From NCBI RefSeq assembly GCF_054482525.1, contig NZ_CM137006.1: a stretch of DNA of 64,000 nucleotides. One strand, written 5' to 3'. Positions 34,751 to 35,207 of the stretch are shown in pieces. The stretch's first letter is position 1. The number at the start of each line of letters is the position of its first letter. Below the pieces are notes generated by a model. That model saw nothing but the letters and a program-made list of their open reading frames with translations, was not told where the DNA came from and made no database searches. Made by a program: the position numbers and the translations under genes.

Positions 34751-34904
34751 GCTGGCCTCCCGTCGATAACCTGTATGCCGTCAGCAGTACATATCCAGCG
34801 TGGGGCGTTCAGATTGGCGGCAAAATACCAGACCAGTTCGCACAGCAGCCCGGTCAGCGTGGTTTCGGTTTCCGGCAGCAGCACGTGGCCGTTCAGTATC
34901 TGCG

Positions 34905-35207
34905 TCAGCGCCAGGCAGTAATCGCAGAGTGATCCTGCATCAGGCTCAAACCGGGTGAAACATCGGGAAGATCATTCGTAATAAACCCGTCAATCAGATG
35001 TGGTGGGATCGGCTCGTTCAGCGTGGGCCGTAACAGTGCAAGACAGGTATTAAGCCTGCCACAGAGCGCCGTTTTCAGCGCCGGATCGCAGCACTCGATG
35101 AGCGTTGTGGCAACGCGATCGCAGTACTCCGCCAGATCGGTGAAATCGGTAGCGGCACTAAAGGGAACAGCAAGTAAATTGCATTCAGAGGTGAGAGTAG
35201 TCGCCAT
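34905..35207 (-). CDS. Hypothetical protein (possibly frameshifted; continues in another frame to 34754)
   Basis: 100-aa ORF with no recognisable motifs; a further 52 codons read through in the +1 frame down to a stop overlapping the Ner-like start codon. Confidence 0.4.
   Translation of the reverse strand: MATTLTSECNLLAVPFSAATDFTDLAEYCDRVATTLIECCDPALKTALCGRLNTCLALLRPTLNEPIPPHLIDGFITNDLPDVSPGLSLMQDHSAITAWR

Follow-up and report, generated by a model that had tools for sequence, protein, structure and literature searches.

A probable lineage-specific pseudogene in a P4-like antisense RNA immunity cassette of an Escherichia coli genomic island

Gene organization of the locus

The window analyzed here is a stretch of 64,000 nucleotides (nt) from contig NZ_CM137006.1 of the RefSeq assembly GCF_054482525.1, and the subject of this work is p153, a broken copy of a gene for a conserved protein of 153 amino acids (aa), which occupies positions 34747..35207 on the minus strand. 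The ATG of this gene, at 35207, starts an open reading frame (ORF) of 100 codons that terminates at a premature stop codon (34907..34905), and a second minus-strand frame is open from approximately 34968 to the native stop codon of p153, a TGA at 34749..34747, with about 52 codons between the two stops. The native TGA overlaps the ATG (34750..34748) of an 84-aa Ner-like helix-turn-helix (HTH) gene (34496..34750, minus strand) by 4 nt, in the arrangement ATGA. On the other side, p153 is preceded by a C4/CI-type antisense RNA with its target sites and, farther upstream, by the divergently transcribed gene rhs (35729..39910, plus strand). A preliminary description of this DNA, made from the letters alone, delineated both ORFs and the short operon with the Ner-like gene, divergent from rhs, correctly; the RNA and its targets, which fill much of what it took for a promoter region, were missed. 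Taken together, the data presented below suggest, with a probability of roughly 0.85, that the p153 locus is a lineage-specific pseudogene inside a decaying P4-type immunity cassette of an E. coli island.

A single-nucleotide deletion in a conserved gene

Pairwise alignment of the window with the intact allele from E. coli EFF60 (WP_001578541.1, 153 aa, encoded by a 462-nt coding sequence at locus L002) reveals a single indel, where EFF60 reads CCCGGTTTTGAG and the window reads CCCGGTTTGAG (CCCGG-TTTT-GAG vs CCCGG-TTT-GAG). Judging from this alignment and from the allele counts given below, the lesion is a 1-nt deletion that has left a run of three Ts (34948..34950, minus strand) in place of the four found in intact alleles. 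The break is thus located 43 nt upstream of the premature stop codon and not around 34905, where it had been placed originally. The 100-aa ORF ends with 14 out-of-frame residues (LSLMQDHSAITAWR) that have no counterpart among the members of the family, whereas the two pieces of the gene are 98-100% identical to, and collinear with, the contiguous 153-aa protein. The loss of one T from TTTT truncates the protein after 86 native residues and removes its best-conserved, C-terminal part. The Prokaryotic Genome Annotation Pipeline calls a 461-nt pseudogene (“hypothetical protein, frameshifted”), followed by the HTH gene, in strain 1190, whose sequence shows 100% identity to that of the window over 851 bp. 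The frameshift alone is a routine, ordinary finding that is already flagged in RefSeq.

The intact protein is represented by 196 homologous protein clusters, nearly all annotated as “hypothetical” and mostly exactly 153 aa long, from Escherichia, Salmonella, Klebsiella, Citrobacter, Enterobacter, Dickeya, Pectobacterium, Hafnia, Brenneria and other Enterobacterales. A scan of one genome per species yielded 80 genomic loci, often several per genome. The homologs in these clusters and loci are single contiguous ORFs, and no homolog consists of two short genes, which bears out the original conjecture that one gene of about 150 aa has been broken by a frameshift. The ORF is 140-160 aa long in all but two of 87 loci (exactly 153 in 46), the two exceptions being the window-type allele and one other locus (L084). 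A member of the family is expected to be a contiguous ORF of about 140-160 aa with the conserved C-terminal LTGLLCELVWYF..APRW block; the window copy is split by the 1-nt deletion and, judged by its sequence, is a pseudogene of the family rather than a functional member. The most conserved block of the protein, LTGLLCELVWYFA..APRW, lies in the part that the window copy has lost. The median pairwise ratio of nonsynonymous to synonymous substitution rates (dN/dS) in the family is 0.23, with 0.19 for residues 1-86 and 0.28 from residue 87 to the end; the latter value indicates that the part of p153 lost in the window is under purifying selection in the intact genes. Another truncated allele of E. 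coli, apparent in a cluster of 16 member sequences (P0024, 114 aa), ends with ...LNGHALDTYC and is independent of the one in the window.

An exhaustive profile search of 1.84 billion proteins produced 239 clusters at 50% identity that comprise only the family itself; the longer matches in this search are read-through calls with the Phage_ASH domain, i.e., translated C4 RNA. A comparison of p153 with Pfam, NCBIfam and PADLOC detected no family match, and the only two matches in PHROGs are not significant (E-value about 0.06). An AlphaFold2 model with a predicted local distance difference test score of 83.6 consists of a four-helix bundle and a C-terminal beta-hairpin, and comparison of this model with known folds retrieved only generic bundles that are uninformative with respect to function. 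A tblastn search of 50,697 phage records with p153 as the query matched one unannotated 1.5-kb contig but not P4, and a profile comparison with ORF151 of P4 was negative as well.

Frequency of the allele and alternative explanations of the frameshift

A megablast search matched the locus in 198 of the 5,426 complete genomes, in each case at one place on an E. coli chromosome. A 71-nt query centered on the T run matched 125 complete E. coli genomes, 17 of them exactly (T3); the remaining 108 differ from the query, and all 52 non-identical matches that were sampled span 72 bases, consistent with a run of four (T4). The T3 allele is carried by isolates from dogs, pigs, chickens, humans and seawater; 16 genomes share 100% identity with the window over 851 bp, and the T3 alleles carry linked single-nucleotide polymorphisms that separate them from the T4 alleles. 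These observations point to T3 being a real allele, present in a minority of strains and derived from one inherited mutation.

The same data bear on the suggestion, made in the preliminary description, that the gene is intact in the actual genome and that the missing T is a homopolymer miscall introduced in sequencing or assembly. The lesion does sit in a short homopolymer, and most E. coli genomes have T4, but a run of three or four nucleotides is an atypical site for such errors; given that complete genomes from diverse hosts and sources share the exact allele and that T3 resides on a haplotype of its own, with linked polymorphisms, an artifact appears very unlikely. A similarly low probability attaches to programmed ribosomal frameshifting or a phase-variable switch, whereby the T3 allele would still make the full-length protein or toggle it on and off. 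A homopolymer at the frame junction and a downstream frame that is still open and identical to that of the intact allele speak for such a mechanism; however, the contiguous ORF is the ancestral and overwhelmingly common state in every genus examined, the T3 genomes form one haplotype in which the Shine-Dalgarno sequence is degraded as well, and contingency loci need longer tracts than T3/T4. Full-length synthesis would need a -1 slip, and the local sequence, CCC GGU UUG AGC, is neither a slippery heptamer of the X XXY YYZ type nor another canonical slippery site; all relatives are single-frame. Finally, the two frames could be read as two independent short genes, of 100 aa and about 45-67 aa, both of which appear in the mechanical list of ORFs, the second one with a possible GTG start at 34884. 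No homolog is divided in this manner, both pieces are collinear with the single 153-aa protein, and the family has nothing that corresponds to the terminal 14 residues of the 100-aa ORF, so that the chance of there being two genes is close to nil. The inheritance of a single inactivating deletion in p153 accounts best for all these observations.

An antisense RNA with co-varying targets upstream of p153

The C4/CI-type antisense RNA is encoded on the minus strand at 35261..35349 (a full-length match to Rfam RF01695 with 62.2 bits, compared to the gathering threshold of 45); it runs from 35349 to 35261 and ends 53 nt before the ATG of p153. Two segments of this RNA, the loop of hairpin 2 (a', CAGUGAG) and a junction segment (b', AGGCUAA), each have complementary sites on both sides of the RNA. 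Upstream, a1 (CCUCACU, 35392 to 35386) is complementary to a', and b1 (GAUUAGCCUC, 35409 to 35401) includes UUAGCCU, which is complementary to b'; the putative a1b1/seqA/IsrK-like target region (35394..35446, minus strand) is indicated by sub-threshold matches to RF03163 and isrK. Downstream, just 3' of C4, the b2 target (GAUUAGCCUC, 35249..35257, minus strand), identified by complementarity to b' and by covariation, occupies the loop of a 3-bp hairpin whose three pairs co-vary, with 16, 1 and 6 sequences changed on both sides. It is followed by the a2 target (CUCACUG, 35225 to 35219, within 35213..35225 on the minus strand), which is complementary to a' and abuts the ribosome-binding site of p153. 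In relatives, a2 continues directly into a GGAGG located 7-8 nt upstream of the ATG. The window copy has UAGACGG as its ribosome-binding site, compared to the family consensus GGAGGCUG; at the Shine-Dalgarno position the window has UGUAGACGG, the consensus is UGGAGGCUG, and E. coli ACN001 has UGGAGACGG. This degraded leader, in which GGAGG is changed to GTAGA, is present in at least 66 E. coli genomes, and a1 of the window carries a G->A change.

This arrangement is conserved throughout the family. In 77 of the 88 loci, there is a C4-like sequence whose end lies about 50-63 nt (mostly 52-57) upstream of the ATG, and 17 base pairs of the C4 fold show compensatory changes among 69 sequences. Complementarity was evaluated for the loops only because whole-C4 RNAduplex comparisons, which ignore the C4's own fold, were uninformative. 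Among 67 distinct loci, complementarity of at least 7 nt within the same locus was detected in 94% for a'-a2, 91% for a'-a1, and 98.5% each for b'-b2 and b'-b1, compared to 14%, 13%, 0.4% and 0.6%, respectively, for pairs of non-matching types. There are at least nine a-types and at least seven b-types, which are freely combined, or recombining, across loci. Such co-variation of short loops with their targets is, so far as it can be read from sequences, the hallmark of the c4 and CI immunity systems of P1/P7 and P4, respectively.

A promoter-like element, TTGCTG-N17-TATTGT (35440..35468, minus strand), precedes the a1b1/C4 transcript and aligns with the corresponding sequences of relatives (family consensus TTGC..-17-TATCTT). 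A scan with a strict sigma-70 consensus reported no promoter, and this element was not among its results; we infer nevertheless that it is the promoter of the a1b1/C4 transcript. The acaat-type repeats pointed out originally in this region are real in part, in the form of four copies of ATTGTAT (three direct and one inverted) within the 155 nt at 35375..35529 compared to 12 in the entire 64 kb, and one copy overlaps the -10-like TATTGT of the putative cassette promoter; the copies are not, however, conserved in related loci.

Of the 87 loci, only about 25 have an in-frame extension of p153, upstream through the C4 RNA, that is open for at least 46 codons, and in the window this extension is closed. 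The ORFs in these regions that are named “ash family protein” or match Phage_ASH are calls that extend across the C4 RNA gene. Many of the “ash family protein” calls are therefore probably spurious, and caution is due with such annotations because here they are largely translations of an RNA gene.

The Ner-like gene and the question of rhs regulation

The Ner-like protein contains a full-length HTH_35 domain (E-value 8.8e-31, 106.2 bits compared to the cut-off of 25; residues 5-74 aligned with profile positions 1-70 of 75); the protein also has a match in PHROG 769, “transcriptional repressor”. In about half of the p153 loci, this gene is located directly 3' of p153, mostly with the 4-nt overlap, which is kept in about 40 loci. 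In the window, the premature stop codon of p153 lies 155 nt before the start of the Ner-like gene, which has a GGGAGG 8 nt upstream of its own start. About 40 nt after its stop codon, there is an inverted repeat with perfectly matching 16-bp arms and a 10-nt loop (34413..34454, minus strand) that overlaps a terminator-like match on the plus strand, where it is followed by a T-run; this repeat is a possible terminator of the operon, perhaps a bidirectional one.

The layout of the locus invites the view that p153 and the Ner-like gene serve specifically to regulate rhs, the divergently transcribed toxin gene, and that the frameshift rewires rhs expression. Ner-type proteins, such as Ner of phage Mu, are DNA-binding repressors, and the 521-nt intergenic region separating the two transcripts harbors the cluster of ATTGTAT repeats. 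The comparison of loci argues otherwise. The pair stays linked to the C4 RNA and the integrase side, and the upstream neighbor varies between genera, being, for instance, a type I restriction-modification system with DarTG, AbiE with TacAT, or large unknown proteins; among the fetched loci, rhs adjoins p153/Ner only in the E. coli type and in one other locus (L056), and the repeats, as mentioned above, are not conserved. The specific regulatory link between Ner and rhs suggested in the preliminary description thus receives no support, and a dedicated rhs regulator is an improbable interpretation, albeit somewhat less so than those of the frameshift rejected above. Given the fixed association of the pair with C4 and the integrase side next to changing cargo, p153/Ner is predicted to be part of the control and mobility backbone of the island.

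The island, its cargo and its decay

The island spans 10.65 kb between yeeO and yeeN and is bounded by a 20-nt direct repeat, ccagtcagaggagccaaatt, at 30152..30171 and 40802..40821, the first copy of which is the 3' end of tRNA-Asn (30092-30167). It contains a P4-type integrase (30329..31591), a frameshifted Phage_int_SAM_2/Integrase_1 gene (33645 to 32929, minus strand), a small ORF, the Ner-like gene, p153, rhs and a TPR gene. Directly upstream of the Integrase_1 gene, an EFASI RNA is encoded (33828 to 33701, minus strand; RF02957, 100.8 bits), a position that fits the “around integrases” association in the name of this motif; no STAXI RNA was found between the Ner-like gene and EFASI. The backbone shared with related islands comprises C4, p153, Ner, the EFASI RNA, the Integrase_1-like gene and the P4-type integrase, and a related integrase is present a few kb downstream in 35 fetched loci. 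The cargo is variable: rhs and the TPR gene in the window, type I restriction-modification and DarTG in Pectobacterium, TacAT, AbiE and DUF4747 in Klebsiella, and large unknown proteins together with a HigBA-like pair in another E. coli island. Some p153 copies are solitary remnants.

Within the E. coli clade, the islands appear to be eroding. The Integrase_1 gene is frameshifted in all examined copies of this clade; in EFF60, where p153 is intact, the integrase carries a frameshift and a tryptophan codon of the Ner-like gene is replaced by a stop codon; in ACN001, the Ner-like gene and rhs are frameshifted; and p153 has lost the T in 17 genomes and is truncated in another way in P0024. The ACN001 locus (L093, 497-1471) is also a recombinant in which C4 b' (TGCCAA) and b1 (GGCAT) belong to one type and b2 (AGCC) to another, so that the C4 RNA no longer matches its own downstream target b2. 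Despite the damage to several island genes, the attachment sites look intact. Given that several backbone genes have been broken independently, the most plausible view of the p153 frameshift is that it represents one stage in the gradual loss of the switch of a resident island.

The Rhs protein (35729-40515 region, plus strand) has an N-terminal DUF6531 domain and a 139-aa C-terminal tip after the DPxGL motif; no Pfam match was detected for the tip, which is a candidate novel toxin, and the TPR/Sel1-like 182-aa gene that follows rhs, for which there is no PADLOC match, is a candidate immunity protein. Other RNAs in the window are the his operon leader (11895-12018) and DicF (61672-61723), the latter of which suggests that a second prophage remnant, a Qin-like one, is located toward the right end of the window. 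There are also four 73-nt tRNA matches (25862-25934, 28271-28343, 30092-30164, which is the tRNA-Asn of the island, and 56063-56135); judging from their identical scores, the other three are presumably tRNA-Asn as well.

A proposed mechanism and its implications

By analogy with the better characterized systems, p153 would be the first translated ORF of a P4/P1-type antisense RNA immunity cassette. One promoter would drive a transcript that carries, in this order, a1/b1 (IsrK/seqA-like), the C4/CI-like RNA, b2 and a2, p153, and Ner. The C4 RNA would be processed from the operon transcript, as in P1, P4 and Gifsy-1, and would then pair with b2/a2 and block the initiation of p153 translation, in the manner of c4-icd-ant of P1, seqA-CI-seqC-kil/eta of P4 and IsrK-orf45-AnrP of Gifsy-1. 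Polarity on the ribosome-free mRNA, together with the loss of coupling, is expected to lower the expression of Ner and the genes downstream. The cassette would remain silent until the switch flips; relief of repression would then allow the expression of p153 and Ner, which may act on the activation of the island. In the window, this switch would lack its first effector, and any translation from the weakened ribosome-binding site would stop before reaching Ner.

Several points weigh against this interpretation or limit its reach. The mechanism, including C4 repression, translational coupling and a role of p153 and Ner in activation, is argued from analogy and covariation. The upstream target region matches RF03163 (35446 to 35394) with 43.8 bits compared to the gathering threshold of 46.7, and the overlapping isrK-like match has 45.2 bits compared to 50, both just below threshold; the a'-a2 and b'-b2 duplexes of the window are only 7 nt each; and the window is missing a terminator hairpin that is located between a1b1 and C4 in most relatives. 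No Ner gene adjoins p153 in about half of the loci, and the strong ribosome-binding site of Ner itself implies that p153-Ner translational coupling may not be important. Finally, no relative of p153 with a known function was detected in Pfam, NCBIfam, PHROGs, PADLOC or by fold comparison, and the role of p153 as the effector of the RNA switch is a guess.

With these reservations, a well-conserved family that lacks a Pfam entry gains a defined position, as the first ORF under a C4/CI-type antisense RNA and at the position of kil in P4. The RNA switch, whose loops clearly co-vary with their targets, belongs to the backbone of small islands bearing defense systems and Rhs toxins, and it offers a testable handle on the silencing and activation of such islands. 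A broader proposal, for which no earlier description was found, can be offered only tentatively, as somewhat doubtful: the backbone might define a widespread family of minimal, tRNA-integrated islands of Enterobacterales with defense or Rhs cargo, in which a P4-type RNA switch of many specificities would control activation (excision or transfer) and p153 would be the released effector, e.g., an antirepressor, an activator or a Kil-like factor.

Comparison with known systems

The Ner-like gene resembles Ner of phage Mu and Nlp (SfsB) of E. coli in having the full-length HTH_35 domain and in its affiliation with PHROG 769; it differs from both in scoring below the cut-off of the NCBIfam SfsB equivalog model (110 vs 150 bits) and in the lack of a Mu-like context.

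The immI region of P1/P7 (c4-icd-ant) shares with the window the location of the C4 RNA and its targets on one transcript, the two pairs of targets (a1/b1 upstream and a2/b2 at the ribosome-binding site of the first ORF), the specificity set by short loop sequences, and, as predicted for the window, the coupling of the first ORF to the next gene. The mechanism of c4 action in P1/P7 is reportedly the one worked out by Citron and Schuster in 1990, a work cited in PMC2864571. The differences are that icd and ant are unrelated to p153 and Ner, and that P1 is a plasmid prophage whereas the cassette described here resides in a 10.65-kb integrated island.

In the Gifsy-1 isrK-orf45 (STnc1160)-anrP locus, as would be the case in the window, an IsrK-like RNA precedes a C4-like RNA, RNA pairing controls the site at which ribosomes bind the first ORF, and the downstream effector is translated via coupling (PMC4825925). 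According to the same source, IsrK is a structural homolog of seqA, and the C4-like STnc1160/orf45 gates the antirepressor AnrP by translational coupling (PMC4825925); the equation of IsrK/C4 with seqA/CI is likewise drawn in PMC3632133. Unlike the window, Gifsy-1 has a short IsrK that activates translation, and its effector is an antirepressor; the window has no terminator that would make a short IsrK.

The closest parallel is the immunity region of P4, where the isrK/seqA element (8705 to 8615) is followed by the C4/CI RNA (8507 to 8420), a 54-nt leader (...CACAGGAGGCTGCCATCATGGCTACAACC) and an ORF that starts with MATTLTPSHPEF (MATTLTPSHP...). The start after CI lies inside the ORF annotated as “cI (1-137)”, which corresponds to the nested eta/kil genes of the literature (PMC10111431, with a summary of Forti et al. 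1999). The first start codon is located 53-54 nt after the RNA in P4 and in the window alike; as in the p153 loci, it is preceded by GGAGG overlapped by a target of the RNA; the leaders and the first codons (MATTLT..HP) are similar; and the island carries a P4-type integrase. The first ORFs after C4/CI-type RNAs begin alike, with MATTLTxxHP, MAATPTQLHP or MTTTPTPSHP (the 8365 region of P4/L088, clusters P0216 and P0231, and 35207 in the window), and this start peptide precedes otherwise unrelated proteins, which suggests that the first 10 codons or so are constrained at the level of the RNA or of initiation.

The island itself is not a P4-like satellite: in a comparison with the alpha primase, epsilon, sid, delta, psu, alpA and the integrase of P4, only the integrase was found in its 10.65 kb, and the P4 core genes epsilon, orf151, alpha, sid, delta and psu are all missing from it. 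Furthermore, P4 has an Eta-like in-frame extension through the RNA that is closed in the window and in most relatives, the distance from seqA to CI is shorter in the island, and the window lacks the IsrK terminator. Kil of P4 consists of 65 aa and aligns with p153 over 19 N-terminal residues only (hhalign probability 12%), and p153 has neither a Phage_ASH domain nor any other Pfam match. Because the alignment is limited to these 19 residues and similar starts precede unrelated proteins, p153 is predicted to be a positional equivalent of kil and not its protein homolog. Placing the p153 family at the position of kil, in a P4-type RNA immunity cassette of islands with cargo, is the useful addition made here.

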